NCBI GenBank assembly: GCA_963770525.1
Contig: CAVYPY010000003.1
Location: 445,129 to 509,128 of the forward strand
From: an uncultured Acidobacteriaceae bacterium
GTDB lineage: Bacteria; Acidobacteriota; Terriglobia; Terriglobales; Acidobacteriaceae
Length of the DNA: 64,000 nt
Direction: 5' to 3'
Part shown: piece after piece, positions 2,678 to 54,385 of the stretch
Layout of the letters: each line of letters starts with the position of its first letter
Position numbering within the stretch: the first letter of the stretch is position 1
The notes under the pieces: model-generated
Told to the model about the DNA's origin: nothing
The model's input: only the letters and a program-made list of their open reading frames with translations
The model's database searches: none
Translations under genes and position numbers: made by a program

Positions 2678-2707
2678 ATTTCTCCTTGGATGAGTTGTCG
2701 AGCCGGA

Positions 2708-3193
2708 TCAGGCCTGCTTCTTTTTGGGATGCTTGTCGCTGTGCTGGTTCAGCAGCTGCTCCAGCTCTTCCTTAAATTCGCGAACGTCTTTGAAATCCCG
2801 ATAGACGCTGGCGAAACGGATGTAAGCGACGGTGTCCAGCGCCTTCAGCCGCTCCATAATCAGCTCGCCGATTTCCGAGGTGGTTCGCTCGCGCTCGGTG
2901 GACTCGGTGACGAAGGCCTCTGTTTCATCGACCAGCTGTTCCAGCTTGCCGGCGGAAATCGGCCGCTTCTCGCAGGCGTGCAGCAGCCCGCTTAATACCT
3001 TCTGGCGCTCGAATTTCTCCCGGCGCCCATCCTTCTTCACCACCATGTAGGGGATTTCGTCGATTCGCTCGTAGGTGGTAAACCGGCGGTTGCACCGCTC
3101 GCATTCGCGCCGCCTGCGGATGGAGTCGGCCTCCCTGCTCTCCCGCGAATCAATGACGCGGTCCTGGGCAAACCCGCAGTAAGGACATTTCAT
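2708..3193 (-). CDS. nrdR: Transcriptional repressor NrdR
   Basis: 161 aa. N-terminal zinc ribbon MKCPYCG...CERC followed by an ATP-cone (VVKKDGRREKFERQKV...). Confidence 0.95.
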   Translation of the reverse strand: MKCPYCGFAQDRVIDSRESREADSIRRRRECERCNRRFTTYERIDEIPYMVVKKDGRREKFERQKVLSGLLHACEKRPISAGKLEQLVDETEAFVTESTERERTTSEIGELIMERLKALDTVAYIRFASVYRDFKDVREFKEELEQLLNQHSDKHPKKKQA

Positions 3194-3316
3194 CGGTCTG
3201 CTTTGATTCTAGCAGCGCCTGCATCAGAACGCGCTCCGGCGCTGATGTCCCGCTTTGTGCAATTGTCAGGGTGTTCGAATCGGGCTATCGTGATTCGCAA
3301 CGCATCTTATCCGACT

Positions 3317-3781
3317 ATGAGCAAAGATTCGACACGCAGCATCATGAAAGGCGCGCTCGCCGGATTAATCGGCGGCCTGGCCGGAGCCGCGGCGAAAATG
3401 ATCGCCGAGCAGCTCTTCCCGCCGCGCGTACAGGGACAGACGCCGCCTCCGGTGGTTCTCGCCGAACAGGTCGCCCGGCGTCCCCTCACCGAGAGCGATC
3501 GCCAAATGGCCATGCAGGGCATTCACTGGATTTTCGGCGCCCTGGCCGGAGCCGTCTACGGCGTCATGGTGGAGTACGAGCCTTCACTGGGCGCCTGGCG
3601 CGGGGCAGCGTTCGGCATTACGCTCAACCGGATCACGCATGAATCCCTGCTGCCGAAGCTGGGTCTGTCGGCTCCTCCCGGGCAACAGCCCACCCAGGAG
3701 CGCATCAGCGAGTGGGCGACGCACGCAGCCTACGGCGTAGCGACGGATGCTGTCCGGCGCGCCGTTCGACGCGCTCTCTGA
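3317..3781 (+). CDS. Small membrane protein (DUF1440-like)
   Basis: ORF 3203..3781. The internal ATG at 3317 (MSKDSTRSIMKGALAGLIGGLAGAAAKMIAEQ) is the likely start. Glycine-rich hydrophobic segments. No catalytic motif recognised. Confidence 0.45.
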   Translation: MSKDSTRSIMKGALAGLIGGLAGAAAKMIAEQLFPPRVQGQTPPPVVLAEQVARRPLTESDRQMAMQGIHWIFGALAGAVYGVMVEYEPSLGAWRGAAFGITLNRITHESLLPKLGLSAPPGQQPTQERISEWATHAAYGVATDAVRRAVRRAL

Positions 3782-9504: not shown

Positions 9505-10062
9505 CTATTCGAAAATCAGAATCGCCGCCGCGATCGTTGTCGTCCAAAGCCCGCGCTTGTCGCCAATCGCCGACTGAGTCACGTTCGCGGTGCGCACGAT
9601 CTTGTTGGAGATGCGGTAAATCTCCTTTTTTTCGTCCCAGCTCGTGTCAGGATCGAACTCCACGTCCAGCGTGGTGGCCAGCATCTCTGCGGCCAGCTCT
9701 TCGGCGTATTCTCCTGCCTGTTCTTCGGTCTCGCCGAAGCTGTGGTGCTCGCTTAAGTAACCGTAGGTGTTACGATCACTGGGAATCGCCACCCCGATGC
9801 TGGATGCCACCAGCCGATGCGGCTCTCGTGTGGAGTTCTCGGCCACCACCGCGAAGACCACTTCGCCCGGGCTCAGATACTTCAGCCCTTCTTTGCGGGG
9901 AACCAGCTTTGCCTGGGGCGGGAAAATGGACGAGACGCGCACCAGATTCTGCGCCGCAATGCCGGCATCCCGCAGCGCCAGCTCAAACGAAGTCAGCCGT
10001 TCCTTATGTTTTCCCACGCCCTTCGTAAAGAACAGCCGTCGCGGGACCATGCTTTTTCCCAA
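9505..10062 (-). CDS. pdaD: Pyruvoyl-dependent arginine decarboxylase
   Basis: [31 protein letters not shown]...VSSIFPP is typical of the PdaD family. The start may be the ATG at 10050. Confidence 0.85.
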
Positions 10063-10292
10063 TTTTCAATCCCTCCGGATCCTGAAACTTCTACACGCTC
10101 CCTTGCTCCGAGCTCCGTTTTCACCCTCGGAGAGGAAGGTCCCCGATGAAACGTATCATGACAGAGGCTCCGGCCGAGATTCCGGGCGCGTGAAATTCAC
10201 ACTTTTTCAATCATACGGCACCATGCGAAACACTGAAACCCGCTCCGCATCGCTATATCGGGAAGCAATGCGCAACCAGCCCGCGGTCACGC

Positions 10293-11891
10293 TTAGTGCT
10301 CGCCCATCGCCGGGGCTGCGCGTCCCGCGCGCGGCGGCCGGCGCATGATGAACGGCAGCGGAATCAGGAAAAGAATAATGATGCTCAGCCCCCAGAAGGC
10401 GTTCTGATAGCTCAGCATCTGCGCCTGACGGTTGAGTGTTTGCCAGACATTTCCCTGGGCAAACTGGGCGGCGCTGCTGGCGCTCTGTCCCAGCCGCTCC
10501 AGCGCTTCGCGGGTCATGTCGACAAAGCGCGAATACTGCGGGCTTCCCGGCACCACGTGCGAGCTCAGCGCCGAAATATGGGTTTGCTGCGTCCTCTGCA
10601 GAAACGTGGTCAGCAGAGCCGTGCCTACGGATCCGCCGATGTTGCGCGCGAAGTTCGAGAAGCTGGAAATCTGATTGTTCTTGGTGCGCGGGACGCCCAG
10701 ATAGTTCAGCGTGCTGATGGGAATGAAGACGAACGACAAGCCCATTACCTGATACGCGCGCCACAGCGTGATCTGCGCGAACGAGACGTTCAGGTCCAGG
10801 CGAGTCAGGTTAAAGAGGCCGGCCGCCGTGATCGCGTACCCAATGGCCACCAGCATGCGCGGATCGAACTTGTTCGACCCGACAATTCGTCCGGCAATGG
10901 GCATCGTCAGCATAAGAACCAGCGCCCCTGGAGACAGAACCATGCCCGCGCGCTCGGCGGTGTATCCCAGCAGCACCTGCAGAAACTGCGGGATCAGGAC
11001 CGTCGTTCCGAACAGCACCATGCCCAGCACGAACTGCAAAAAAACGGCCGTGCCGAAATTGCGGTTCTTCAGCAGCTTGAGATCGACGATGGGGTCTTCG
11101 TGCCGCCATTCCCACCAGACAAACGTCACGAGCATGACCACGGCGATGATGGCAAAGGCGGTGATGTTCGGATCTCCGAACCAGTCTTTCTCCTGGCCCT
11201 TGTCCAGCACGAACTCCAGACAGCCCACGCCAATGGAGATGAGCCCCAGTCCCATGAAATCGACCCGTCCGCCGCGGCCCTTTTCTTCCTGCAGGTACGG
11301 CGGATCTTCGACCATGCGATGAGTCAGAAACAGCGACAACAGCCCTACCGGCACATTGATAAAGAAGATCCAGTGCCAGTTGAAATTGTCAGTGATCCAG
11401 CCGCCGAGAGTAGGACCGATCGCCGGAGCCACGACCACCGCCATTCCGTAAAGCGCAAAAGCCTGTCCGCGCTTGCTGACCGGAAATGTATCCGCCAGGA
11501 TGGCCTGCTCGCTGGGCGCCAGCCCACCACCGCCTATCCCCTGCAATATGCGGAAGAAGACCAGCATCGGCAGAGAAGTCGCGAGGCCGCACAACATGGA
11601 GCAGATCGTAAACAGCGTCACGCAGGTCATGTAGAAGCGTTTGCGGCCCATGCGCGCCATCAGCCAGCCAGAGATCGGCAGAATAACGGCACTCGACACC
11701 AGATAGCTGGTCAGAACCCAGGTGGCTTCGTCCTGGCTGGCGCCGAGGGTTCCGGCCATATGGGGCAGGGCCACGTTGGCGATGGAGGTGTCGAGCACCT
11801 CCATAAAGGTCGCCAGCGTGACCGTGAGCGCCACAAGCCACGGATTATGGCTCGGGGTCCAGTTCGCCTCGTCATAATGCAGTTCTGCCAA
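10293..11891 (-). CDS. MFS drug:H+ antiporter, DHA2 (EmrB/QacA) family
   Basis: 532 aa with 14-TMS architecture. Motifs: LDTSIANVALPHM, RMGRKRF, FRILQGIGGG. Confidence 0.85.
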   Translation of the reverse strand: MAELHYDEANWTPSHNPWLVALTVTLATFMEVLDTSIANVALPHMAGTLGASQDEATWVLTSYLVSSAVILPISGWLMARMGRKRFYMTCVTLFTICSMLCGLATSLPMLVFFRILQGIGGGGLAPSEQAILADTFPVSKRGQAFALYGMAVVVAPAIGPTLGGWITDNFNWHWIFFINVPVGLLSLFLTHRMVEDPPYLQEEKGRGGRVDFMGLGLISIGVGCLEFVLDKGQEKDWFGDPNITAFAIIAVVMLVTFVWWEWRHEDPIVDLKLLKNRNFGTAVFLQFVLGMVLFGTTVLIPQFLQVLLGYTAERAGMVLSPGALVLMLTMPIAGRIVGSNKFDPRMLVAIGYAITAAGLFNLTRLDLNVSFAQITLWRAYQVMGLSFVFIPISTLNYLGVPRTKNNQISSFSNFARNIGGSVGTALLTTFLQRTQQTHISALSSHVVPGSPQYSRFVDMTREALERLGQSASSAAQFAQGNVWQTLNRQAQMLSYQNAFWGLSIIILFLIPLPFIMRRPPRAGRAAPAMGEH

Positions 11892-37585: not shown

Positions 37586-39643
37586 ATGGGCAATTCCACC
37601 AGCGGCCCCACGCGCCGTACCTTCCTCCGCGGACTCACCGCCGCCGCCGCTGCCTCCACGGCACCCGCCTGGCTCGCCCGCACCGCCGCCGCCGCGCCCC
37701 TCACCAACACCCGCCCACAACCGGCCATCAAAGATCGAGCCCCGCTCACCTCCGGCGCCTTCTTCTTCCTGCCGCTCGGGTCCATCCGCCCCCGCGGCTG
37801 GCTCCTCGACCAGCTCCGCATCCAGGCCTCCGGCCTCTCCGGCCACCTCTACGAAATCTGGCCCGACGTCGGCCCCAACTCCGGCTGGCTCGGCGGCACC
37901 GGCGAAAGCTGGGAGCGCGGCCCCTACTACCTCGACGGTCTGCTGCCGCTCGCCTGGCTCGTCAACGATCCCCGCCTTCAGGCGCTCGCCCAGCGTTTCG
38001 TTGACTGGACCCTCGACCATCCCTGGCCCAGCGGCATGATCGGCCCCACGAAAAACAGCGACTGGTGGCCGCGCATCGTCATGCTCAAAGCCCTCACCCA
38101 ATACCAGGAGCTCACCGGCGACCCCCGCGTCCTTCCGCTCATGGACCGCTACTTCCGCTACCAGCTCGCCACGCTGCCCTCGCGACCGCTCCGCGACTGG
38201 GGCAAATTCCGCTGGCAGGACAACGTCCTCTCCGTCCTCTGGCTCTACAACCGCACCGGCTCGCCCTATCTCCTGGACCTCGCCCGCCTGCTCCATCAGC
38301 AGGGCTACGACTGGATCGCCGACGCCGAGCACTTCCAGTACACGCACGCCATGACCCAGGCCGAGCTGAAGCTCTCTTACGGACAGGGACTCGACGGCCT
38401 CGCCCTCGCCACCCACGGCGTCAACAACGGACAGGCCCTCAAGACCGGCGCCGTCTGGTCGCTCGTCTCCGGATCGCCGACCGATCGCGCCGCCTCCGCG
38501 CAGATGCTCGCCGACCTGACCCAATATCACGGCCTGCCCAACGGCATGTTCTCCTGCGACGAGCATCTCGCCGGACGCGATCCCTCGCACGGATCAGAAC
38601 TCTGCACCGTCGTCGAGAGCATGTTCTCGCTCGAACGCGCGCTCGCCATCACCGGCTCGGCCGCGCTCGGCGACCGGCTGGAGAAGCTGGCCTTCAACGC
38701 GCTGCCTGGCACGCTCACGGACGATATGTGGGCGCACCAATATAACCAGGAGCCCAATCAGATCGAGTGCAGCCTGCACCAGAAACCCTGGGTTTCCGAC
38801 GGCCCCGAGTCGAACCTCTTCGGCCTCGCGCCCAACTTCGGCTGCTGCACCGCGAACTTCCATCAGGGTTGGCCCAAGTTCGCCAACAGCCTCTGGATGC
38901 TCTCCGGCGCACCCGACCACGCCCGCGAAGACGGATTAGTCGCTGCCGCGTACGCGCCGTGCGAGGTCACAACGCTCGTCCGCGGAACCACCGTCACCGT
39001 GACTGAAGAAACCGGCTATCCGTTTCGCGGTGCCGTTTCATTGACGGTCAATCCGGAAAAGCCGCTGGCATTTCCGCTGCAGCTCCGTATTCCGGAGTGG
39101 GCCAGCGGAACCACGATTCGCATCAACGGCCAGAGCGTCGGCGAAATTCAGCCCGGCACTTTCCCCCGCGTCGAGCGGACGTGGAAACCTGGCGATCGCG
39201 TCGAGATCGACTTCCCGATGCACCTGCGCACTTCACGCTGGTTTAACCAGGCGGTCGCGGTCGAACGCGGGCCTCTGGTCTTCTCGCTCCAGGTTGGAGA
39301 AGACTGGGTCAAGCTGCAGCAGCACGGCGAGAAGTCCGCGGACTGGCAGGTTTTCCCGACCCACGAGTGGAATTACGCACTGGCCATCGATCCGGCACGT
39401 CCCGAAACGGATCTGGCGGTGACCGAAACCCCGATTGGCTCAGTTCCCTTTTCGGCAAAGGACACCGGAGTTCGCATCGCCGCCCGTGGACGCCAGGTCA
39501 CATCCTGGGTCGCCGACGATGGAGCAGCGAATCCGCTGCCGGAAAGCCCGGTTGCCAGCGAATCTCCGGAAGAGCGGCTGACGCTGTTGCCTTACGCGGC
39601 AGCAAAGCTGCGGATCACGGCGTTTCCGGTGCTCAAAAGCTAG
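37586..39643 (+). CDS. Glycoside hydrolase family 127 (DUF1680, beta-L-arabinofuranosidase-like) with a Tat signal
   Basis: Twin-arginine motif TRRTFLRGL. SELCTVVE and FGCCTANFHQGWPKF match the Cys/Zn site motifs of GH127. Confidence 0.8.
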   Translation: MGNSTSGPTRRTFLRGLTAAAAASTAPAWLARTAAAAPLTNTRPQPAIKDRAPLTSGAFFFLPLGSIRPRGWLLDQLRIQASGLSGHLYEIWPDVGPNSGWLGGTGESWERGPYYLDGLLPLAWLVNDPRLQALAQRFVDWTLDHPWPSGMIGPTKNSDWWPRIVMLKALTQYQELTGDPRVLPLMDRYFRYQLATLPSRPLRDWGKFRWQDNVLSVLWLYNRTGSPYLLDLARLLHQQGYDWIADAEHFQYTHAMTQAELKLSYGQGLDGLALATHGVNNGQALKTGAVWSLVSGSPTDRAASAQMLADLTQYHGLPNGMFSCDEHLAGRDPSHGSELCTVVESMFSLERALAITGSAALGDRLEKLAFNALPGTLTDDMWAHQYNQEPNQIECSLHQKPWVSDGPESNLFGLAPNFGCCTANFHQGWPKFANSLWMLSGAPDHAREDGLVAAAYAPCEVTTLVRGTTVTVTEETGYPFRGAVSLTVNPEKPLAFPLQLRIPEWASGTTIRINGQSVGEIQPGTFPRVERTWKPGDRVEIDFPMHLRTSRWFNQAVAVERGPLVFSLQVGEDWVKLQQHGEKSADWQVFPTHEWNYALAIDPARPETDLAVTETPIGSVPFSAKDTGVRIAARGRQVTSWVADDGAANPLPESPVASESPEERLTLLPYAAAKLRITAFPVLKS

Positions 39644-39664
39644 GTAGGGGTACCCCCTGGTAGT

Positions 39665-39733
39665 GCCAAATCACAAGTTGCTGATTTGGCAGCACATGGA
39701 AGGTAATACCCTGAGGGTATTACCTTCTTTTTC
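39665..39733 (+). terminator. Two tandem hairpins after GH127; the second is a rho-independent terminator
   Basis: First hairpin: GCCAAATCA-N8-TGATTTGGC (39665-39690). Second hairpin: AAGGTAATACCC-TGA-GGGTATTACCTT followed by CTTTTTCC (39700-39733). Confidence 0.75.
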
Positions 39734-39975
39734 CGGCTGGGCCTTGTTTCGGGCCGGAGCCGGTGAGCGAGAAAGCGAGCGGTCGTCTCAAAGAGCGCGG
39801 CGCTCCACCTGAGTGGAGCGGCAAAGGAAAAGCCCTGTTCGCGTTGCGGACAGGGCTTTCCCTGCTTCCAGTTTGGAATGCGGGGCGGTTGAGTGCAAGG
39901 GGAATCGCGCGGTGAGAGGGTACGAAGGTACCGCGGGGAGTGAGTCCGCTGCGCTCGTCCCGAGCTGCGCGGACG

Positions 39976-40044
39976 GCCTGCGGCAGCAAGGAAGCGCGCT
40001 GCGCGCGGTCTTTTCGGCACGACTGAAGTCATGCCCTGATACAA
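39976..40044. repeat. Left arm of a long inverted repeat flanking the tandem array (includes a REP-like hairpin)
   Basis: 39976-39994 (GCCTGCGGCAGCAAGGAAG) is the perfect reverse complement of 40421-40439. 40013-40044 matches the reverse complement of 40370-40401 at 31/32 positions. Confidence 0.85.
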
Positions 40045-40070
40045 AACCTCAGGGGCTGAAGCCAGGGACC

Positions 40071-40370
40071 TGTATCAGGGCATGGGTCTTGTATCAGGTC
40101 ATGGGTCTTGTATCAGGGCATGGGACTTGTATCAGGTCATGGGTCCTGTATCAGGGCATGGGTCTTGTATCAGGCATGGGTCCTGTATCAGGGCATGGGA
40201 CTTGTATCAGGTCATGGGTCCTGTATCAGGTCATGGGTCTTGTATCAGGCATGGGTCCTGTATCAGGGCATGGGTCCTGTATCAGGGCATGGGACTTGTA
40301 TCAGGGCATGGGACTTGTATCAGGTCATGGGTCTTGTATCAGGCATGGGTCTTGTATCAGGCATGGCTCT
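40071..40370. repeat. Tandem array of 16 units of 18-19 bp, TGTATCAGG(G/T/-)CATGG(G/C)(T/A)C(T/C)
   Basis: Units counted by hand start at 40071, 40090, 40109, 40128, 40147, 40166, 40184, 40203, 40222, 40241, 40259, 40278, 40297, 40316, 40335 and 40353. Twelve are 19 bp and four are 18 bp. Confidence 0.95.
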
Positions 40371-40439
40371 TGTATCAGGGCACGACTTCAGTCGTGCCGA
40401 ATAAGTGCGCCGACAGGTACCTTCCTTGCTGCCGCAGGC
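40370..40439. repeat. Right arm of the inverted repeat (REP-like hairpin GGCACGAC-TTCA-GTCGTGCC plus the outer 19-mer)
   Basis: See the left arm. The spacer segments between the inner and outer blocks (18 and 19 nt) are unrelated. Confidence 0.85.
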
Positions 40440-40517
40440 TCTCGGCGCAGGTGCGCAGCACCGCAGCCGAGTCGTTGAATCGGCCGATTGCCTCAAAGCA
40501 GGCCTGATCCGCTGTCG

Positions 40518-41060
40518 CTAGCGGCTGTTTTCCCCGTGCCAGTCGATGTGGACGCCGCGGGCGGAGATGGTGATGGAGGGCGGGCGCTGGCGGGTGAGGA
40601 GATGGATGGTCTGGAATCCGCCGGTGAGGGCGAGGAGGGCTCCGCTGCCGACGAGGAGGCCGAGTTTGGAGGTGGGGTCGGGGTCGAGGACGGCGGCGAT
40701 GATGAGGCCGGCGCCGAAAACCGTCATCCCCGCCGAAACGGAGACGGCGGTCCACTCGCGGCGGGAGAGGCGGCCGGAGAGGCCCATCTGCAGGAGCGAG
40801 TGGCGGGCGGGGTCGATGCCAGCGCCAGCGTCGTCGATGAGGTCGACCTGGGCGTGGTGGCGGTAGGCCTCGGTGAGGCGGGCGAGCCAGTCTTTTTCGG
40901 AGGTTCGGATGGTTAGGGGCGGGGCCGGGCTGGATTGCAAGTCGGGCTTCGACTCGTGGCGGGGGGGCAGGACGATCTCGGTTGGCCCGGTGGAGCGATA
41001 GGCCTTCATCGCATTCAGGCCGGCCTGAAAGGCCTGGCGGATCCTAGCCATGTGAAACAC
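40518..41060 (-). CDS. Hypothetical membrane protein (soluble N-terminal half, two C-terminal TM helices)
   Basis: 180-aa ORF. Either the GTG at 41060 or the ATG at 41051 could be the start. It overlaps the XRE gene's stop by 17 or 8 nt. TM segments: VSAGMTVFGAGLIIAAVL and LGLLVGSGALLALTGGF. Confidence 0.55.
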   Translation of the reverse strand: MFHMARIRQAFQAGLNAMKAYRSTGPTEIVLPPRHESKPDLQSSPAPPLTIRTSEKDWLARLTEAYRHHAQVDLIDDAGAGIDPARHSLLQMGLSGRLSRREWTAVSVSAGMTVFGAGLIIAAVLDPDPTSKLGLLVGSGALLALTGGFQTIHLLTRQRPPSITISARGVHIDWHGENSR

Positions 41061-42300: not shown

Positions 42301-43200
42301 AGGCTGTTATTAAGTTTGAGTAAGCATTTTGAAGAGGGTGGCGAGCATGAGGCAGGCGCAGGCGAGAAAGTGGAAGGCACCGAGAGTGGTAGCCAGGCGT
42401 TCGTAATCGCGGGCCAGGCGGCGGAAGCGGGCAGCCCAGGCAAAGCTTCTCTCCACCACCCAGCGGCGCGGCAGCAGAACAAAGCCTCGTTTGGCCTGAG
42501 TATGTTTCACCACTTCCAGGGCGATTCCGTGCTGTTCGGCGGCCTCGGCCGCAGCTTCGCCGGTATAGCCCTGATCCACGTAGGCGAGTTCGACGTGCTC
42601 ACCGGTGATCTGCTGCACCTGCCGGGACAGCTCGCCGACCTGGGCGCGATCCTGTTCGTTGGCCGGAGTCACATGCAGGGCCAGCAGATGCCCCAGCGTA
42701 TCCACAGCGGCGTGTACTTTGGAGCCTTTGCGCCGTTTGGCTCCGTCATAGCCGGCTCGCGCACCCGATTCCGGTGTCGACTGCAGCGTGCGGCTGTCGA
42801 GAATCATCGCTGTGGGCTGCGCTTTGCGCCCGGCAAACTCGCGCAGCAGCATGCGCAGGTCTTCCACCATCGTCTCGAAGCAACGGGCGCGGATCCAGCG
42901 CTGCACCTGCTGATACACGACCTCCCACGGCGGCAGATCGTTGGGCAGATAACGCCACTGGCAGCCGGTCCGCACCACATAGCGCAATCCGTTGAAGACG
43001 TCGCGGAGCGGGTACTCGCGCTGCTCGGCGTCCTCCCGGCAGAGGGCCAGGTAGGGCGCCACCATCGCCCACTCCTCATCCGTCACATCGCTCGGATACC
43101 CCTGTCGCTCACGCCGTCCCACAACCCCAGGATGCACGACAGAAAGCCAAATCGCTCATCTGTTTCAAAACACAGGAACAAACTTAATAACAGCCTCTAG
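42297..43200 (-). mobile_element. IS5-family insertion sequence (904 bp including both CTAG ends)
   Basis: Perfect 22-bp terminal inverted repeats: CTAGAGGCTGTTATTAAGTTTG (42297-42318) and CAAACTTAATAACAGCCTCTAG (43179-43200). CTAG at both ends can be read as a 4-bp target duplication. There is a single transposase ORF inside. Confidence 0.9.
42310..43137 (-). CDS. IS5-family DDE transposase
   Basis: 275 aa. The stretch [16 protein letters not shown]...[31 protein letters not shown] (DUF4096-type N-terminus) is followed by a DDE_Tnp_1-like region ([10 protein letters not shown]...YVDQGYTG...[10 protein letters not shown]). Confidence 0.9.
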
Positions 43201-44049
43201 AATGAGTTTCATCGTCTCTGCCGAATAGCCGCGGCCAGCTACGGGCAAATCGAGCGTCTTTATCGGGGTTTCTAACGGAGGCACAAAGAGGTCTGCGTAG
43301 ACATCCTTCGCCAACAACTTGATTTGACCGTTCGTTAGATCGGAGAAAGATGGCGGGGAGTATCGTCCGGTTCCAGCCCCAACGAGTGCGCGTGTCGCTA
43401 TTGCATTGGCACTCTTCCGGTCTCTAATTAAGCGCACTTCCAAGTCGCCAATCGGGGTTTGCTCAGTATTGATCGTGTGGAATGATCTCTCCGCGCGTGA
43501 CGCATCGCCGCGAACCCACTGCAACGTGATTCCGCCAGCCGCCAGATTGCTCGCGAATCGAGCACGTTCCGGGGTCAAATTGGCACCATGCTTGATGTCG
43601 TTATATGACCCGATTTTCGTTGCGACTAGCTTTCGCGCCTCAAGCGCGGCGGCTTTCTGTTCCGGGGGTATCGAACCTTCAAAAAATCCCAGCGAAATTC
43701 CGCCGTCTCCATAGTCATCGTGCACCCACGCAACCAGCGCACTGAGGCGATGTGCTCCATCAATTACGAATATTCCGCTTGCATCGGATTGCCAAAGAAT
43801 CAGGGCGGGGATGAGGTCGCCAGATACGAAACTCTCGATGAAGCCTGCTACCTTCGTCGGGGACCAATGCGCCGTCGTCCTCTGAAAATCAGGCTTTCTG
43901 AGCCACCTGAACATGAGACTCGTAGGCTCAATCTCTATGATTTTCATTCGATCCGCTTCATCCAGTGGATGTGACTTCTGCGGGTCAATGTTTACGGTGA
44001 AATCCTCTCTGCGGATCAGCGCGTCGAGGTTGACCATGTGCGTGGGCAC
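43197..44049 (-). pseudogene. N-terminal fragment (ParB/sulfiredoxin-fold, DGQHR-type domain) of the IS-disrupted nuclease gene
   Basis: Sequence: LRKPDFQRTTAHWSPTKVAGFIESFVSGDLIPALILWQSDASGIFVIDGAHRLSAL. The track ORF extends to 43165, but its last 10 residues (EAVIKFVPVF) are encoded by the IS end. Confidence 0.8.
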
Positions 44050-44143: not shown

Positions 44144-45302
<1,159 letters not shown>

Positions 45303-45322
45303 TCTTAAAGTCTAGCTAAAAA

Positions 45323-45398: not shown

Positions 45399-47052
45399 CT
45401 ATCGGCTACCGGCTGGGCGACGCATGAATCCGGCGGCGAGAGCCGCGAGGACAATGGCGCCGCAAAGATACGCGAACAGGTCGCCGTGGCGGGTATAGAA
45501 GGTGAGGTCCGTGCGGTATCCGAAGCGGGCAACGAGCGAGGTCAGCGTATGGCGTGGGACGGAGAGGGTGACGCGTCCGCGGGGGTCGATGACGGTGGTG
45601 ACGCCGGAGTTGGTGTCGAGCAGGAGCCAGCGGTGGTTTTCGATGGCGCGCATGCGAGTCATGTTGAGGTGCTGCCAGGGGGCGGAGGTGTCGCCGTACC
45701 AGCCGTCGTCGGAGATGTTGACGAGGACCTGGGCGCCGTTGAGGGCGAAGTGGCGGATCTCGTCGGCGAAGACGGATTCGTAGCAGATGAAGAGGCCGAA
45801 GGTGTGGCCGTCGGCGTGGAAGACGGTGCGCCGGGTGCCGCGCTGGAGGTCTTCGAGCTGGTGGGTGAGCTTGGGGGCGAAGAAGAAGAGCTGACGGTAC
45901 GGGATGTATTCGCCGAAGGGGACGAGGTGGATTTTGTCGTAGCGTCCCTGGACGGAGCCGTCGGAATTGACGAAGACGCCGGAATTGTAGAAGCCCTGGG
46001 AGTCGTGGCCGAGCATGCCGACGATGAGGGGGGCATGGGCGGCGGTGGCGAGGGTCTGCCATGGCGTCGAGGGTGCGGGGCTGGTCGCTCTGGAACCAGG
46101 AGGCGGTTTCAGGCCAGAGGATGATGCCGGGGGGCGGGGTGTTTTGCGCGCATTCGGCGGGCGCAGCAGGCGGATGCGCGAGGGTGGGCAGGCCGTCGAA
46201 GGCGGGAGTGCAGGTGCGCGCATCCTGCTGGAGGATCCAGGAGAGCTGGCCGTTCCACTGGAGGCCGGGCCAGGTGGTGGCGTCTTCGGCGGCGACGTTG
46301 ATGTTGGGCTGCAGGAGGACGGCGTAATCGGAGGTAGGTGAGGGTGGGCCCTCAACGAAGGAGCCGGGCTGGAGGATGGCGACGAGGAGGACGCCTGAGA
46401 CGGCGAGGACGAGGCGCGGACGGGCGGTGGCCAAGAGGGCTCCGGTGAAGAGGGCGTTGACGCCGACCAGGACAAAGGAGAGGCCGTAGACGCCGGTCCA
46501 GGGAGCAAGGTGGGTGAGGAAGAGGTTGTCGACCTGAGCGTAGCCGAGCTGGTCCCAGGGGACGGAGGTGATGCGGGCGGCGGCGAGTTCGAGAGCGGTC
46601 CAGAGAAACGGGGCGAGGACCAGGGCGGAGATCAGGCCGAGGCGGCGGCGGATGAGAGCGAGGAGGAGTCCGAAGAGGCCGAAGTAGAGGCCGAGGATGG
46701 CGCTGAAGGCGACGACCATGAATGCGCCGCCAATGGCGGGGAGATGGCCGTAGAGGACCATCGTCTGGTAGATCCAGTAGCAATTGAGGATGTACCACAG
46801 GAGTCCGGAGAGCCAGCCGATGAAGGCGGCGCGGCGGAGGTCGTGGGGATGGGCGGCCTGGGCGGGGGCGAGCAGCGCCCAGAGCAGAGGGACGAGGGCG
46901 AACCAGGCGAGGATGCCGCGCCAGGGCGGGAGGGGTCCGGCGACCGGGAAACAGAAGTCGAGGAGGACCGAGGAGACGAAGGCGAGCAGGATGGGAAGGC
47001 GGAGCGAAGCACGCACAGGACGCGCGGAGACGGGCGGAGAGGCGGCTACCAC
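45399..47052 (-). pseudogene. lnt: Apolipoprotein N-acyltransferase with an interrupted reading frame (1-nt frameshift near 46056)
   Basis: The N-terminal membrane domain is in the frame of ORF 45406..47052, up to ...ILWPETASWFQSDQPRTLDAMA. The CN-hydrolase domain is in the frame of ORF 45399..46508, from TLATAAHAPLIVGM onward, with motifs HLVPFGEYIP, FICYESVF and ISDDGWYG. Omitting one base (G at 46056) joins them. Confidence 0.8.
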
Positions 47053-49012: not shown

Positions 49013-50080
49013 ATGATCGAACGCGTGCTGATCTACCGTCTGGGGAGTCTGGGCGATACCGTCGTGGCCTTGCCGGCGCTGCACCTGGTGGAGCGGGCCT
49101 TCCCCGGCGCAGAACGACGTCTTCTCACGAACATGCCGACGCACTCCAAAGCACCGGCGGCATTTGCCGTTTTAGAGGGTTCGGGGCTGGTTCACGGGTT
49201 TATGGATTATCCATGGAGGACGCGCAGCTTCGGCGATTTAGCGCGACTTTGGTGGAAGATCGTGCGATTTCGTCCCCAGGTTGTGGTTTATCTGATGGGC
49301 CAGCGCAACACGGAAAGCCGGGACCGATGGTTTTTTCGCCTGTGCGGGGTGTGCGAGGTGATTGGCCTGCCGACAGGAGATCTGGCAGAGCCGTTGTATG
49401 ACCCGGCCACCGGGGTTTGGGAGCACGAGGGAGCACGGCTGGCGCGCTGCCTGCGCAGTCGCCTCGGCGAAGTGGATCTCCAGGACCCGGCCAACTGGGA
49501 TTTGCGGCTGACCGAGGCGGAAGAGCGAAAGGCTGCAGAAGTACTGATTCCCGCCGGAAATCGTCCGATCGTTACGTGCGGTCCGGGCACCAAGATGCAG
49601 GCGAAGGACTGGGGACAGGAGAATTGGCGCCAGTTGCTAAGCCGGCTGAGCCGCGAATTCCCGAACCATGCTCTGGTGCTGGTGGGCGCGAAGGAAGACG
49701 CAGCCGCGGCGGATTATGCAGCCGAAGAATGGGGTGGACCGATCATCAATGTATGTGGAAAGCTGACCCCTCGCGAGACGGCGGGAGTTCTGCGGCGAGC
49801 AGAGCTTTTTCTCGGACCGGACAGCGGGCCGATGCATCTGGCAGCCGCTTATGGGGTGCCCTGCGCCATTCCGTTTGCGGCGCTGGACAGGGCGGGACGC
49901 TGGTTCCCGATCGGCAGCCGCCACCGCCTGATTTACCACCATGTCGATTGCGAAAACTGCCGGCTGACCGTGTGTATTGAGGAGCGCAAAAAGTGCCTGA
50001 CCTCGATTACCGTGGAGGAGATGATGACAGCAGCGCTCGAGGCGTGGCGGGAAGGACAAAGGGTTCCCTGTGAGCGCTGA
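49013..50080 (+). CDS. Glycosyltransferase family 9 (heptosyltransferase-like)
   Basis: Motifs: [23 protein letters not shown] ... KDWGQENW ... [22 protein letters not shown] lies upstream of the ATG at 49013. Confidence 0.8.
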
Positions 50081-50573
50081 AGCAAGAATGGTCCCGCGCT
50101 CTCCGGAAGAGAAGATTCTGGAATGGGCAGAAGCGCGAGTTCGAGTGACCGAATGGCGGACAGCCGGACTGAAGAATGTATTCACGAACGGGTGCTTCGA
50201 TTTGCTCCACCTGGGACATGTGACACTCCTGGATCAGGCACGACGTGAGGGCGATCGGCTGATTGTGGGCATCAACAGCGACGATTCAGTCCGATCGCTG
50301 AAAGGGCCATCGCGGCCGGTGCTACGCGAGGAAGCGCGGGCGCGGGTCCTGGCAGGACTGGAGGCGGTGGATGCTGTGGTGATTTTCGATGAGCCCACCC
50401 CGCTGCAATTGATCGAAGCGCTGCGTCCGGATGTGCTGGTGAAGGGGGGGGACTATGCAGGAGAAGAGATTGTGGGTGGACCGGAAGTGCGGTTGTGGGG
50501 AGGCAAAGTCTTATTTGTGCCTTTTGTTGAAGGGTTCAGCACGACGGAGATCATTGCACGCGCGCGGGAGTAG
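50070..50573 (+). CDS. HldC/RfaE-domain-II-type sugar-1-phosphate nucleotidyltransferase (cytidylyltransferase fold)
   Basis: Sequence: [22 protein letters not shown]...[19 protein letters not shown]...VKGGDY. The start is either the GTG at 50070 or the ATG at 50088. Confidence 0.8.
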
Positions 50574-50586
50574 CCCCCGGCGCAGG

Positions 50587-50949
50587 CTACCGGGCTTGGG
50601 AGCGGCCTTGTTCCTCAAGAAAGGCCTCGATGCGTGAACAATCGGGATCGTAGAAGACGGAGCGATCATCAATGAGGAAATCGTAGCGGGGCTTACCCAT
50701 CCAGAGTTCGTGATAGCGCACGCCCCAGCCGGCGAGCTGGTCCTCGGTGAAAGCGCGTCCGATGCGCTCCGTCTCTTCACGGTTCCCCTGGGTCCGACCC
50801 ATAAAACGGCTGGTGTGCAGGACGATGGTGAAGCCGCGGTCGTAAAGTCGATTGACCAGAGCGATCATGGCGGGGTGGGGCTGTGCGTCTTCATAGTCGC
50901 CTTCCATCTGGTCGCACAAGACCCCATCGATATCGAAGCAAACCCTCAT
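50587..50949 (-). CDS. Small capless HAD-superfamily phosphatase
   Basis: Motifs: FDIDGVL (motif I), HTSR (II), GKP...LIDD (III/IV). ATGA overlap with the upstream gene. Confidence 0.7.
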   Translation of the reverse strand: MRVCFDIDGVLCDQMEGDYEDAQPHPAMIALVNRLYDRGFTIVLHTSRFMGRTQGNREETERIGRAFTEDQLAGWGVRYHELWMGKPRYDFLIDDRSVFYDPDCSRIEAFLEEQGRSQAR

Positions 50950-51617
50950 GAAGACATCCAGCCCTGGAAATCTTTGAGGAAGCCCTGGACGGATTTGTCC
51001 GTCGCTGGATGCGCGGCCATCTGCTCAAGGATTTTGGCTCCGACAGTGACGATATGGCCGCCAGCCATATGCGCCTCGAGGACGTCGGTCTGGAGGCGGA
51101 TGCTGCCGGCGATAATCTCCGCCTTGTGACCGGCCTGGTCGAAGATGCGACGCGTGTTACCGATGACCCGCACCGGATCGCCGCCGATGTCCTTGAGCCG
51201 GCAGTGAAAGACAGAGACATAGCTGGCACCGCTGTTAGCGGCGAGCACGCACTGCTCCTCGGTGAAGATGCAGGTGCAGTTGACGCGGATCCCGGCTTTG
51301 GAGAGCCCGTAGATGGCTTTCAGTTCGTCCCAGCCAATGGGGATTTTGATGTTGAGGCCGGAATAACCGATCTTGTCCATGATGTCCTTGCCCTGGGCGA
51401 TCATTTCGTCGGCTTTGGTAGCGAAGACTTCCACGCTGAGAGGCAGTTTGCGGCCATCTGCTTCGATCAGCTTCGCAATCTTTTTGATGTGCTCGTAGAA
51501 ATTGGCTTTGGGCTCCTTCGCCAGCAGAGACGGGTTGGTGGTGATGCCGGAGAGATGGCCGCGCGCCAATCCGTTTTCGACGTCCTGGAGGTTGGCCGAG
51601 TCGAGGAAAATCTTCAC
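50946..51617 (-). CDS. Transaldolase / fructose-6-phosphate aldolase family enzyme (short TalC/FSA type)
   Basis: Motifs: MKIFLDSANL...GITTNPSL...NIKIP (Schiff-base Lys region)...YVSVF. Confidence 0.85.
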   Translation of the reverse strand: MKIFLDSANLQDVENGLARGHLSGITTNPSLLAKEPKANFYEHIKKIAKLIEADGRKLPLSVEVFATKADEMIAQGKDIMDKIGYSGLNIKIPIGWDELKAIYGLSKAGIRVNCTCIFTEEQCVLAANSGASYVSVFHCRLKDIGGDPVRVIGNTRRIFDQAGHKAEIIAGSIRLQTDVLEAHMAGGHIVTVGAKILEQMAAHPATDKSVQGFLKDFQGWMSS

Positions 51618-52450
51618 GCAGGTTGCTCCTGTTTTGGGTTGAGTGGGAGGGAGTCGACGTCGATGTGGCGATAGGTCTGGCCATCTTCGACGAGATAGGA
51701 ATCGGAATCGGAGTCGCGCGTAGAGACTTCGAGGATGACGGTGTCCTCGAGGCCGATGCGCATATGCATGACGCCGGGGCGGACATCGTAGCTTTGTCCG
51801 GCCATCATGACGATGCTGCGATTCTCGGCACGGCCGATGCGCAGGCCGACCTTCAGCAGGCCGGAATGGATGTAGTAGCTCTCGCTTTTTTCCACGTGAT
51901 ATTCGAGGCTGCTTTGCCCGCCCTTCTGGACAAAAATGCGTTTGGCAGCGACGTCTTCGCTGAGGATGGTCTCGATGCGGCCCCAGTATTTTTCGCGGAC
52001 GTCGGTGGTGGGCTGGCCGATGAGGGGAATCGAAGCCGAATCCAGAGAGCGGAAGGCCGCAGCCGCGGCCTCATCGGTTTCGAGACGGATGGAGCGGAGA
52101 CCTTCGGGAGTGCGAGGGCCGAAGAGATAGATGGCGGCACCGGAGTGACTGGCGGCGGCGTGGGGGAAGAATGCGGGAATGGGCAGGAGCTGGCCGGCGC
52201 GGACGATGCCAGCCTGGGGATTGCCCGCCTGATCGATGCTGCGCAGAAGGACTTCGCCGGATTCCACAACGGCGTGGAATTTGCCGGCGGCGAGGATGTG
52301 CAGCGGCTGAGCGGCGCCGGGGAGGAGGTCGACACGATACATCGAGAACTGCGGCAGCTCGGTCAGGGAGGTGACGCCGCCCCACGAGAACGAGGCGGCC
52401 TGAGGCTGATTGATGTGGCGGACCTGATCGAGGGTCAATCCGTAAGCCAT
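51614..52450 (-). CDS. Bicupin protein whose C-terminal half resembles the type II phosphomannose-isomerase cupin
   Basis: The stretch EKYWGRIETILSEDVAAKRIFVQKGGQSSLEYHVEKSESYYIHSG...GVMHMRIG...ILEVSTRD resembles the RPWG..F.VKRI.V.PG..LSLQ.H..R.EHW pattern of PMI-type cupins. Confidence 0.6.
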   Translation of the reverse strand: MAYGLTLDQVRHINQPQAASFSWGGVTSLTELPQFSMYRVDLLPGAAQPLHILAAGKFHAVVESGEVLLRSIDQAGNPQAGIVRAGQLLPIPAFFPHAAASHSGAAIYLFGPRTPEGLRSIRLETDEAAAAAFRSLDSASIPLIGQPTTDVREKYWGRIETILSEDVAAKRIFVQKGGQSSLEYHVEKSESYYIHSGLLKVGLRIGRAENRSIVMMAGQSYDVRPGVMHMRIGLEDTVILEVSTRDSDSDSYLVEDGQTYRHIDVDSLPLNPKQEQPA

Positions 52451-52468
52451 AAGCGGCTCCTTTTGCGG

Positions 52469-53431
52469 TTACAGGCCGAGGGCCGGCGCGAGGTCGGTCT
52501 TCCTCGGCGGAATCGTACCGTGGATCTGCACGGCGAGGCCAGCCCAGGCGTTGGCCAGTTGCAGGGCTGCCTCAGGATCGTCGAGACCGGCGAGACAAAA
52601 GGCGGAAAGAAAGGCGTCGCCCGCGCCGGTTGTGTCGGTGACGGTAACGGCCCGGGCAGGGGCCTGAAAGACGGAGGAGCCATTCTGGAAGATAGCCCCG
52701 TCTTCGCCCAGCTTGACGACGATGCGGCTGGTGTCGAGTGCGCGGTTCAGGACCGCGAAGGAGCCGGGAGCTGTGGACGGGGTAAAACCCGGATCGATGC
52801 AGCGGGCTTCTCGCAGGTTAAGGACCATGACGCAGCCGCCGCGGTAGAGGGCGTGATTGCTGGCGGTCTGCGAGACCTGCGAGTCCACATAGACGGTTTT
52901 TTGTGCAGCATGCAGTCGGGGCAGGAGCGAAGTCAGGAGATCGGTGGAGAGCAGGCCGTGGCGGTAATCGGAGATGATGACGATGTCGGTGCCGGGCAGT
53001 GCAGCTTCCACCAGGGCAAGAACCTGGTCGCCGACAGTGGCGGAGATGGGGGCGTCGTCGCGCTGGTCGAGCTGGAAGAGTTTGTAGCCGTCGACCCAGA
53101 AGCGATGCTTGACGGTGGTGGGACGCGCGGGATCCTCCACAGGGAGCAGACTCAGATGCGGCGCAGCGAACTGCCGGACGTGGGCGGCTTCCTCATCGGC
53201 GCCGATCAGCGTGAGGAACTGCACGGAAGCACCGAGTTCGAGGAGGTTGCGAGCGACCAGGGCCGCACCTCCCAGCGAATGCTTTACTTCCCTGCGGCGA
53301 GCAACGATCGTAGGCGTTTCGGCGGAGAGGCCGAGCGCGGTGCCGTAAGTATAGATATCGAGGATGGTATCCCCGATCAGCAGCACTCGCCTGCGGTTCA
53401 GTCTTTGAAGAATGGTTTCCAGTGTGTTCAA
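52469..53431 (-). CDS. PfkB-family sugar kinase, HldA/RfaE-domain-I-like
   Basis: Motifs: RVLLIGDTILDIYTYG...SAETPTIV...GGAALVARNLLELG...DTTGAGDAF. By eye it is collinear with the E. coli HldE N-terminal domain. Confidence 0.8.
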   Translation of the reverse strand: MNTLETILQRLNRRRVLLIGDTILDIYTYGTALGLSAETPTIVARRREVKHSLGGAALVARNLLELGASVQFLTLIGADEEAAHVRQFAAPHLSLLPVEDPARPTTVKHRFWVDGYKLFQLDQRDDAPISATVGDQVLALVEAALPGTDIVIISDYRHGLLSTDLLTSLLPRLHAAQKTVYVDSQVSQTASNHALYRGGCVMVLNLREARCIDPGFTPSTAPGSFAVLNRALDTSRIVVKLGEDGAIFQNGSSVFQAPARAVTVTDTTGAGDAFLSAFCLAGLDDPEAALQLANAWAGLAVQIHGTIPPRKTDLAPALGL

Positions 53432-53491
53432 CCGAGAATTCCCGAGAAGCGCGGCCGGACCATCCGCGAGGGAGTCACCGGCGCCACGCGA

Positions 53492-54385
53492 TCAGTGGAT
53501 CCGAGCCGATTCATGCGACGGAGATTGTGGCGATTCGCCGCGCTTAATGCGTTGAATGACATTCGTGGAGGAGTAACCGCGAACCAGAGGGAAAATCTTG
53601 ACCTCAATGTCCTCGGGAACTTCATCCTGGGCGCGGACCTCTTCGGCGAGCCATTCGCCGCCCTTCACCACGATGGCGGGATGAAGCGATTCGATGAGCG
53701 CGGTTGGCCGCAGATCATCGAAGACGACTACCTCATCGACAAAGCGCAGTGCCTGGAGAACGGCCTTGCGGTTCTCCTGGGAGTTGACGGGGCGACCTTC
53801 GCCTTTGAGAGCGCGCACTGAGGCGTCGGAATTGATACCGACGACCAAACGGTCGCCGAGATTACGGGACCAGTTCAGAAGCTCGATGTGCCCCTGGTGC
53901 AGGATGTCGAAAACACCGTTCGTGAAGACCACCTTGCCCCGAGGATCGGGGGCGATTCGCTCGACCCGCCGCACATGGCGGCGCTCTCCGAACTTCTCCG
54001 AAAGCCAGCGGTGGCTGATCTCGATGTTCTCCTGATCGCTGCAGATCCAGGAGCCGAGGCAGAGTACATTAGCGTCATTGTGCTCGCGGCACTTGCCGGC
54101 GCTTTCGTAATTGTGCACAACAGCGGCGCGCACTTTGGGCAGCTTGTTCGCGGCAATGCTCATCCCAATCCCGGTACCACAGATGAGGATTCCACGATCG
54201 CAGTCGCCGTTCTGAATCAGCGTGCCCACCAGTTGGGCGTAGTCGACATAATCGACGGAAACCGACGAAGAAAACGGGCCAAGATCGAGGCAGCGGTGAC
54301 CGGCTTCGGTCAGGGAAGCTTTGATTCTCGACTTCAGGTCAACACCGTTGTGGTCGGCAGCGAGACAAACGATCATTTCGCTCAT
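53492..54385 (-). CDS. Fusion protein: RpiB/LacAB-type sugar-phosphate isomerase (N) + HldC-type nucleotidyltransferase (C)
   Basis: N-terminal half: IVCLAADHNGVDLK...ILICGTGIGMSIAANK...RAAVVHN...HNDANVLCLG. C-terminal half: VVFTNGVFDILHQGHIELL...VGINSDASVRALKGEGRPV...VKGGEW. ATG at 54385 preceded by AGGAGA. Confidence 0.8.
   Translation of the reverse strand: MSEMIVCLAADHNGVDLKSRIKASLTEAGHRCLDLGPFSSSVSVDYVDYAQLVGTLIQNGDCDRGILICGTGIGMSIAANKLPKVRAAVVHNYESAGKCREHNDANVLCLGSWICSDQENIEISHRWLSEKFGERRHVRRVERIAPDPRGKVVFTNGVFDILHQGHIELLNWSRNLGDRLVVGINSDASVRALKGEGRPVNSQENRKAVLQALRFVDEVVVFDDLRPTALIESLHPAIVVKGGEWLAEEVRAQDEVPEDIEVKIFPLVRGYSSTNVIQRIKRGESPQSPSHESARIH

Follow-up and report, generated by a model that had tools for sequence, protein, structure and literature searches.

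Seven adjacent genes on contig CAVYPY010000003.1 of an uncultured Acidobacteriaceae bacterium raise the question of which activated sugar they make, and whether they make it in place of the canonical ADP-heptose pathway. They lie in a 64-kb stretch of that contig (hereafter, the window). The minus-strand genes, here called the module, encode a fusion of an RpiB domain with a nucleotidyltransferase (RpiB-NT), an HldA-like PfkB kinase, a bicupin, a transaldolase (TAL), and a small HAD phosphatase; the plus-strand genes encode a GT9-family glycosyltransferase and a stand-alone HldC-type nucleotidyltransferase (NT). The seven genes probably represent a conserved, uncharacterised pathway for a nucleotide-activated C7/C8 sugar that is attached to a surface polysaccharide. 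An earlier note on this DNA had regarded them as replacing the canonical heptose genes. This part was not upheld: relatives hold canonical gmhA, gmhB, and hldE beside the module, and hence the pathway is a parallel one. The overall interpretation of that note is partly supported.

Conservation and enzymes of the module

Scanning for the bicupin in one genome per species gave 19 loci, nearly all from Acidobacteriaceae, Terracidiphilus, or strain AB60. In all 19 species-representative genomes the genes run RpiB-NT, PfkB, bicupin, TAL, HAD; the convergent HldC gene is present in 17 of the 19 loci, and the GT9 gene also in 16. A metagenome scan with the cupin alignment added 80 further loci. In total, about 100 public loci carry the module unit beside the bicupin, in hosts with a GC content of 0.29 to 0.67, and the order of the module genes differs among lineages. 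Partners were counted only at loci whose contig leaves space for the gene. The kinase was found beside the bicupin in 75/75 loci, the small HAD in 77/77, TAL in 83/84, and the RpiB domain and the fused NT in 55/56 each, whereas the stand-alone HldC was found in 33/40 (it is absent, for example, from locus L029). The co-occurrence in related genomes on which the earlier note had staked its reading is thus very strong across lineages.

Of the 34 loci whose contigs extend 2.5 kb to either side, 31 gave a match to a hidden Markov model of GT9 no more than 3 kb from the module. In distant lineages it lies either directly after the HAD gene (L029, L043, L059) or ahead of the fusion gene (L100, L025, L097). 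The neighbours in distant loci include Wzx-type flippases, Wzy/O-antigen-ligase-like proteins, GT2 and GT4 transferases, and methyltransferases; the distant module loci sit in polysaccharide clusters.

Profile searches confirmed the families predicted earlier for all seven proteins. The kinase matched TIGR02198 (HldA) over its full length with 181.7 bits, below the equivalog cut-off of 345 bits, compared with 59 bits for the next kinase model and 47–54 bits for models of ribose(-phosphate) kinases. Its only strong relative in the PDB was HldA from B. cenocepacia (4e84; E 6.8e-29). The stand-alone NT passes TIGR02199 (200.5 bits; cut-off 181.5), falls in the HldC clade, and shares 69% identity with the NT domain of HldE from L005, a close relative whose cupin is 93% identical. 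The fused NT (70 bits with PF01467, CTP_transf_like) is 48% identical to the same domain and does not pass TIGR02199 (159.5 bits); its HxGH is retained, and the KGGDY of HldC is replaced in it by an invariant KGGEW. The kinase and both NTs are therefore placed beside HldA and HldC and not beside ribokinase or TagD, as had been expected. Both of the NTs noticed earlier are present, but they are not equivalent: the stand-alone one is a canonical, dispensable HldC, and the fused one forms a lineage specific to the module.

The window kinase is about 30% identical to the kinase domain of L005 HldE. In neighbour-joining trees the module kinases are separate from canonical HldE/HldA (L005, L066, L088), and the fused NTs are separate from the NT domains of HldC and HldE. 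Clade-specific sites include R34, R120, K158, and K185 of the canonical kinases, where the module kinases have G, Q, H, and Q; K117 and R157 are gained in the latter. These shifted basic residues seem compatible with a differently placed distal phosphate. Because the clades are separate and both kinase/NT sets, canonical and module, occur in one operon or locus (L088, L005, L066), the sequences imply a different substrate for the module enzymes.

The known architectures of NDP-heptose synthetases are the monodomain NT, kinase/NT, and isomerase/kinase/NT forms, and an Arg residue in the (F/L)xxGRSTT motif marks NTP promiscuity (PMC11573728). This Arg is missing in the window HldC (FVEGFSTT) and in the fused NT (LVRGYSST), and is present in the N-terminal NT of L024 (FLEGRSTT). 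The latter belongs to a 469-aa HldC-RpiB-NT protein (10001–11410), in which an HldC-type NT is fused N-terminally; a 464-aa RpiB-NT-NT protein in L025 (7623–9017) carries the fused-type NT as a tandem duplicate.

The small HAD (120 aa) has DxDG, T-S-R, GKP, and DD motifs, which are conserved in 66 copies. It scored 39 bits with TIGR01689 and 21.9 bits with HAD-IIIA (TIGR01662), both under the cut-off, and when it was compared with GmhB-type HAD-IIIA 1,7-bisphosphate phosphatases no GmhB model matched. Some variants have HAD-IA or Cof-type phosphatases in exchange for it; L025 has two different HAD phosphatases in its place, together with a GT9-GT2 fusion. The window GT9 matched PF01075 with 81.8 bits (threshold 22) and stays below the equivalogs of lipopolysaccharide (LPS) heptosyltransferases I, II, and III (57.8/185, 54.4/135, and 42.2/170 bits, respectively).

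The RpiB domain scored 163 bits with PF02502 (LacAB_rpiB), 161.8 with NF004051 (cut-off 135), and 153 with TIGR00689 (cut-off 88), and was just below the TIGR01120 equivalog (127.8 against 138.65). Its catalytic D11-H12-N13-G14, C-G-T-G, and E101-H-N-D104 and the phosphate-binding R/H are invariant in 55 module copies, and it is fused to an NT in 55 of 56 loci. Judged by the residues expected of ribose-5-phosphate isomerase B, all of which it has, the domain is of the canonical type.

The TAL matched PF00923 (TAL_FSA) with 152 bits and TIGR00875 with 182.6 bits, under the equivalog cut-off of 246. Its best matches in the PDB were the transaldolases from B. subtilis, T. maritima, and T. acidophilum (E 3.5e-44 to 7e-38); structures of fructose-6-phosphate aldolase (FSA) were reached only at about 1e-19. 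When it was aligned to TacTal (3s0c) and to the B. subtilis (3r8r) and T. maritima (1vpx) enzymes, the Tal-type catalytic set was complete: Asp6, the E of "svEvf", the Schiff-base K of "niKip", N-C-T (N-x-T), the F of "svFhcR", and an R. Glu occupies the position of Gln in FSA, and Phe that of Tyr; the catalytic set is conserved in 68 family members. The earlier note had left the choice between the two activities in this family open; the protein belongs to TAL_FSA and is now predicted to be a transaldolase, not a fructose-6-phosphate aldolase. It shares the length of about 220 aa and all Tal-type catalytic residues with the short TalC/MipB-like transaldolases, but differs from them in scoring below the TIGR00875 cut-off, in always occurring in the module, and in being fused to the bicupin in one lineage. 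The SVFHCR of the window TAL was considered as a family signature and rejected, as neither its H nor its C is conserved. In RpiB, TAL, NT, and HAD alike, the catalytic residues are invariant family-wide.

The bicupin (278 aa) scored 37 bits with Cupin_1. Its C-domain gave weak signals only for phosphomannose isomerase (PMI; PF01050, 17.1 bits, below the gathering threshold of 23.6) and D-lyxose isomerase (PF07385), both of which are manno-type (manno/lyxo-configured) aldose-ketose isomerases. The AF2 model (pLDDT 86.7) consists of two β-barrels. A Foldseek search of the PDB with it returned only generic bicupins (oxalate decarboxylase and vicilins; TM about 0.6), and a profile search of the PDB sequences with the cupin returned nothing specific. 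The invariant residues are concentrated in the C-domain (KYWGxIE, E183-x-H185...E190, P225-G-x-x-H229, and many Arg and Lys residues), and the C-barrel has a Glu/His/Glu/His metal-type site. A WG-containing N-terminal motif and a His/Glu metal-type site in the C-domain are shared with the cupins of type II PMI and D-lyxose isomerase. Compared with these, the N-terminal barrel is degenerate, the first metal-site His is changed to Glu, the scores are under the Pfam thresholds, and the family is separate and, with 61 clusters at E<=1e-30 in a set of 1.84e9 representatives, small.

The position of the cupin in the pathway is suggested by its fusions. In other lineages this cupin domain is joined to an HldE-like kinase/NT (P0347), to HldA-like kinases (P0349 and P0370), to HAD phosphatases (P0308 and, as a bicupin, P0289), and to TAL (as a bicupin, P0286). 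Among the four activities of an NDP-heptose-type relay, the isomerase is the only one that these fusions leave unaccounted for, so that the cupin would most simply be a ketose-phosphate isomerase, in a slot like that of GmhA and next to TAL. The RpiB-NT, HldE-cupin, and bicupin-TAL forms are outside the architectures listed in PMC11573728, and our literature search found no paper linking cupin, RpiB, or transaldolase to an ADP-heptose-type pathway.

Two further observations concern cupin fusions. L106 encodes a 483-aa bicupin-TAL protein (138–1589). In L107 (4144–7397), genes for a GSU2086-family protein of unknown function and a GmhB-like phosphatase come after an HldE-cupin gene, and the contig carries no SIS isomerase. 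This looks like a separate, GmhA-less cluster of heptose type, also undescribed.

An AraD-like gene, a homologue of L-ribulose-5-phosphate 4-epimerase that passes the subfamily cut-offs for this enzyme, is found beside the bicupin in 16/56 loci. It is usually located between the fusion gene and the kinase and occurs in many non-acidobacterial lineages; carriers are L018, L020, L029, L040, L041, L043, L045, L047, L049, L050, L058, L089, L093, L097, and L100. The parts list given earlier was right in its seven families, but a fuller version of the module includes this gene, which is absent here. As a speculation, the AraD-like enzyme might act as a C4 epimerase on the transaldolase product, in a tailoring step that is optional. 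The idea that it is a class II aldolase replacing TAL, which arose from L024 and L025, was rejected, as many loci carry both. In the low-GC lineage of L088, a 298-aa protein (2666–3562) without Pfam or NCBIfam match is encoded between the cupin and TAL.

Relation to the canonical heptose route

The module and the canonical ADP-heptose pathway share one four-step logic, namely ketose-phosphate isomerase, anomeric kinase, distal phosphatase, and NT. The PfkB/HldA-like kinase and the HldC-like NT are homologous to those of the canonical route, and a HAD phosphatase and a GT9 transferase are present in both; the stand-alone HldC of the locus is even a true member, as TIGR02199 indicates. The differences are as follows. 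The module has no SIS isomerase, the bicupin being in that slot, and no SDR epimerase; it adds RpiB and TAL, and in many lineages the AraD-like gene; its kinase, fused NT, and HAD do not reach the curated equivalog scores and group in clades of their own; and it shares loci with the canonical genes.

In the 64-kb window, no GmhA, GmhB, HldE-type kinase, HldD, or AraD-like gene was found. A tblastn search of the window gave no GmhA homologue, and an approximate E. coli HldD query sequence gave no match there; SDR matches occurred in few module loci and were weak and generic only. The earlier statement that GmhA is missing therefore holds for the locus and the window, but relatives carry gmhA directly beside the module (L009). 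In L005, the space between the transaminase and the fusion gene is occupied by genes for a bifunctional HldE and for a GmhB that has the Zn-loop motif. At the corresponding position L009 (the same as L062) has GmhA and GmhB, this GmhA being 43% identical to an approximate E. coli GmhA query sequence. HldE and GmhB are beside the module in L066, and GmhB in L008 and L076, so that canonical gmhB adjoins the module in L005, L008, L009, L066, and L076. Among the low-GC lineages, HldE is found in L088 and L097, and GmhA upstream of the module in L100.

Because relatives carry canonical gmhA, gmhB, and hldE beside it, the module is a second, parallel pathway alongside the canonical heptose route, and not a substitute for it. 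The stand-alone HldC, together with the gmhA, gmhB, and hldE of relatives, would belong to the ordinary ADP-heptose route, which would run in parallel and probably serve the same glycan. The recurrence of a second, HldC-type NT could be explained by such a co-located supply of ADP-heptose.

Proposed pathway and its alternatives

The earlier note knew of no characterised pathway of this composition. One does follow the same logic. Lincomycin and celesticetin biosynthesis uses the transaldolase LmbR, the C8 isomerase LmbN, the kinase LmbP, the phosphatase LmbK, and the guanylyltransferase LmbO to give a GDP-octose; LmbR moves a C3 unit from fructose-6-phosphate or sedoheptulose-7-phosphate onto ribose-5-phosphate to form octulose-8-phosphate. 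This is the only characterised pathway that shares the order transaldolase, isomerase, kinase, phosphatase, NT with the module. The likeness lies in analogous enzyme functions, the module families being cupin, PfkB, small HAD, and HldC-like NT. The lincomycin pathway belongs to Streptomyces secondary metabolism, uses GDP, and has no RpiB, cupin, or GT9, whereas the module uses HldA/HldC-type enzymes and sits in polysaccharide clusters.

A corresponding scheme can be proposed for the module. The RpiB domain would supply ribose-5-phosphate as an acceptor. TAL would shift a C3 dihydroxyacetone unit from fructose-6-phosphate or sedoheptulose-7-phosphate to an aldose phosphate, giving a ketose phosphate; in the favoured version ribose-5-phosphate would be extended to D-glycero-D-altro-octulose-8-phosphate, as LmbR does. 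The bicupin, as a metal-dependent isomerase of the PMI/lyxose isomerase kind, might then convert this ketose phosphate, with its fructose-like C3/C4, to a manno-type aldose phosphate. The HldA-like kinase would phosphorylate O-1 of the aldose ω-phosphate, the small HAD would take off the distal phosphate, and the HldC-like NT fused to RpiB would make the ADP- (or other NDP-) sugar. The end product would be an ADP-octose with a manno-type head group, one carbon longer than ADP-heptose, which GT9 would transfer in a surface-polysaccharide or LPS cluster. The back end of this scheme (kinase, phosphatase, NT, and GT9) is predicted by homology, and the front end, which would replace the GmhA chemistry, is inferred.

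The choice of an octose is connected with the role of RpiB. Isomerases of the PMI, phosphoglucose isomerase, and GmhA types accept the fructose-like 3S,4R configuration, which is that of transaldolase products. RpiB requires the ribulose/psicose-type configuration, which fits pentulose-5-phosphates and not transaldolase products. This preference places RpiB most plausibly upstream of TAL, where it would make ribose-5-phosphate. In addition, heptose-type clusters without RpiB and TAL exist, both canonical and of the L107 type, so that RpiB and TAL together would be an add-on that changes the substrate. The upstream position of RpiB, the precedent of LmbR, and the add-on character of RpiB and TAL favour ADP-octose. 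HldA/HldC-type enzymes of the heptose pathway yield β-anomeric ADP-sugars.

These proposals are held with different confidence. We consider it likely that the module is devoted to making a non-standard NDP-activated C7/C8 sugar, which GT9 would use. The explanation as a whole, in which an NDP-activated higher sugar is handed to GT9 in a surface-polysaccharide/LPS cluster, is the best available and has slightly better than even standing with us. That the product is specifically an octose made from ribose-5-phosphate is only a tentative proposal. Marginally more doubtful still is the suggestion that this is the first nucleotide-activated octose pathway of primary (cell-envelope) metabolism, built from TAL, a cupin isomerase of a new type that would take the place of GmhA without being homologous to it, dedicated HldA/HldC paralogues, and GT9, with an optional AraD-like enzyme for an alternative stereochemistry.

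Several points weigh against the scheme. The substrates of all module enzymes are predictions from sequence. The fold and profile searches yielded no specific functional relative of the cupin, the AraD-like gene of 16/56 loci is given no role by the model, and the recurrence of two NT types has only a tentative explanation. A dedicated RpiB looks redundant, ribose-5-phosphate being a central metabolite, and the lincomycin cluster has none. The loci are not independent samples, as some metagenome loci duplicate genome loci (L009=L062, L008=L032, L066=L068=L069); even so, the conservation is seen in lineages and gene orders that are clearly different. Furthermore, some cupins are fused to near-canonical HldA/HldE (TIGR02198, 304–328 bits), which suggests that these cupins act on sedoheptulose-7-phosphate and that a heptose product is plausible here as well. 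Apart from Kdo and Ko, we know of no octoses established in bacterial envelope glycans.

The last points lead to the main rival explanation, a heptose route independent of GmhA, which we regard as rather unlikely. TAL would here make sedoheptulose-7-phosphate, its textbook product, from fructose-6-phosphate and erythrose-4-phosphate; the bicupin would give the 7-phosphate of D-glycero-D-manno-heptose or of its C2 (gluco) epimer; and the kinase, HAD, and NT would lead to ADP-heptose or an isomer for GT9, with RpiB merely supporting pentose-phosphate flux. The heptose-type character of the back-end enzymes and GT9 agrees with this, as do the fusions of single cupins to near-canonical HldA/HldE, one of which is paired with a GmhB-like phosphatase in L107; the bicupin-TAL fusion is equally compatible. 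However, RpiB is left without a module-specific role, though it is fused to the NT, has an intact catalytic set, and occurs in 55/56 loci. Sedoheptulose-7-phosphate is available in any cell, and neither the canonical nor the L107-type clusters need a TAL. The co-location of canonical genes with the module (L005, L009, L066, L088) and the separate clades of its kinase and NT, with scores below the equivalog cut-offs, also argue for a different substrate.

The remaining explanations detach RpiB and TAL, or the whole unit, from higher sugars. The two enzymes might be housekeeping enzymes of the host's pentose-phosphate pathway that lie in a glycan operon by coincidence, with cupin, kinase, HAD, and NT (and GT9) as the true unit. 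RpiB-NT and TAL are indeed the most conserved members (73–95% identity across Acidobacteriaceae, similar to the flanking housekeeping alanine transaminase and PrfB), RpiB passes its subfamily cut-off, and the TAL catalytic set is fully canonical, the odd "HC" motif not being conserved. We nevertheless find this improbable, in view of the linkage in hosts of 29–67% GC with differing gene orders across phyla, the physical fusions (RpiB-NT everywhere, bicupin-TAL in P0286), which housekeeping genes would not be expected to show, the score of TAL under the curated equivalog cut-off (182.6 vs 246), and the occurrence of the cupin/module in only 19 species-representative genomes in the close-relative scan, whereas Rpi is required by every cell and Tal by most. 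More improbable again is that the unit does not serve a heptose/octose glycan, and that it makes a pentofuranose nucleotide from ribose-5-phosphate, by anomeric phosphorylation, 5-dephosphorylation, and nucleotidylation, or a soluble nucleotide-sugar metabolite or signal. The fusion of RpiB to the NT would suit the pentofuranose option, PfkB kinases include ribose-phosphate kinases, and the small HAD has as its only named relative TIGR01689 (39 bits), a family of capsule phosphatases that occurs in ribose/ribitol-phosphate capsule systems. Against this, the universal TAL and bicupin would have no role, the kinase is much nearer to HldA than to ribose(-phosphate) kinases (181.7 vs 47–54 bits), and GT9 and polysaccharide-cluster neighbours recur.

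Locus features and significance

Features of the locus (window positions)
Feature	Position	Strand	Profile or remark
GT9-family glycosyltransferase, divergent heptosyltransferase-like	49013..50080	+	PF01075
Stand-alone canonical HldC-type heptose-1-P adenylyltransferase	50070..50573	+	TIGR02199; alternative start ATG 50088
Small capless HAD phosphatase, proposed distal-phosphate phosphatase (GmhB analogue)	50587..50949	-	HAD motifs
Short transaldolase, predicted Tal-type, not FSA-type	50946..51617	-	PF00923; GTG start overlaps cupin stop
Bicupin, proposed metal-dependent ketose-phosphate/aldose-phosphate isomerase (GmhA functional analogue)	51614..52450	-	Cupin_1
HldA-like PfkB sugar-phosphate (anomeric) kinase, module-specific lineage	52469..53431	-	TIGR02198
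Module-specific HldC-like NT domain (NTf), C-terminal half of fusion	53492..53941	-	PF01467
RpiB-type sugar-phosphate isomerase domain, N-terminal half of 297-aa fusion	53942..54385	-	PF02502

All seven open reading frames (ORFs) noticed earlier are present in the window at the positions given for them, and the same products are called on identical public contigs of metagenome-assembled genomes (MAGs) of Acidobacteriaceae bacterium (GCA_049679845, GCA_049680205), with sizes of 355, 161, 120, 223, 278, 320, and 297 aa. The start of HldC is ambiguous: the upstream GTG overlaps GT9 by 11 nt, and the alternative ATG leaves a 7-nt gap to GT9 and agrees with the 161-aa public call. Of the 4-nt ATGA overlaps described before, the one at the TAL/HAD junction stands, but cupin and TAL overlap by GTGA. 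HldC and HAD converge, and their stop codons (50571–50589), separated by 13 nt, lie inside a 6-bp inverted repeat (GTAGCC ... GGCTAC), with almost no space for separate terminators. A scan for promoters and terminators gave no sigma-70-like promoter and no terminator enrichment.

On one flank of the locus are Lnt and PrfB, and on the other an alanine transaminase, an HD protein, and a priming phosphoglycosyl transferase for exopolysaccharide; a UDP-glucose dehydrogenase also flanks the locus. In the window, the dehydrogenase and the priming transferase are the neighbours that speak for a polysaccharide context.

Some features of the surrounding sequence should be mentioned. The prfB gene (release factor RF2; 45139–45310, minus strand) has the classic programmed +1 frameshift site TAT CTT TGA C at 45236, where the short upstream frame MLSDLEFAYAPVREKVRGLREYL reaches its stop and the +1 frame continues as DAPRLRTQLAVLEQ... 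The gene for Lnt (apolipoprotein N-acyltransferase; 45399–47052, minus strand) is frameshifted relative to the intact 549-aa orthologue of L010: the frame is lost past ...SDQPRTLDA, the CN_hydrolase domain resumes in another frame (ORF 45399–46508), and the public gene call reads on in the wrong frame. This is either an assembly indel in a long-contig MAG or a pseudogene. Next to prfB, the ORF at 43165–44049 (minus strand) has a GmrSD_N/DUF262-type domain according to the Pfam record of the identical public contig, and may be a type IV restriction-like defence gene. Near 40 kb (about 38000–41000) the GC skew changes sign, being negative before and positive after, and at the switch there is a gap of about 870 bp (39644–40517) with few ORFs. 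A replication origin at this position was checked and rejected, no DnaA-box cluster and no Rfam match being found; the switch may reflect only a change in gene orientation.

The module is a new, widely distributed variant on the theme of nucleotide-activated heptose/octose pathways. Its automatic names ("RpiB/LacA/LacB family isomerase", "rfaE domain II", and "mannose-6-phosphate isomerase-like") obscure one coherent pathway. It adds to the architectures known for biosynthetic enzymes of the NDP-heptose type. GmhA is a target for antibiotic adjuvants; if the proposed scheme is correct, a cupin-type isomerase would be able to stand in for it. NDP-heptose-type products are innate-immune agonists sensed by ALPK1. 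For biocatalysis, the transaldolase, isomerase, kinase, phosphatase, and NT would form a compact set for rare C7/C8 sugar nucleotides. For the carriers themselves, which include Acidobacteriaceae abundant in soil and peat as well as marine and other uncultured bacteria, the scheme, if correct, would mean a sugar nucleotide new to bacterial envelope glycans, and probably a higher-carbon sugar new to them as well.

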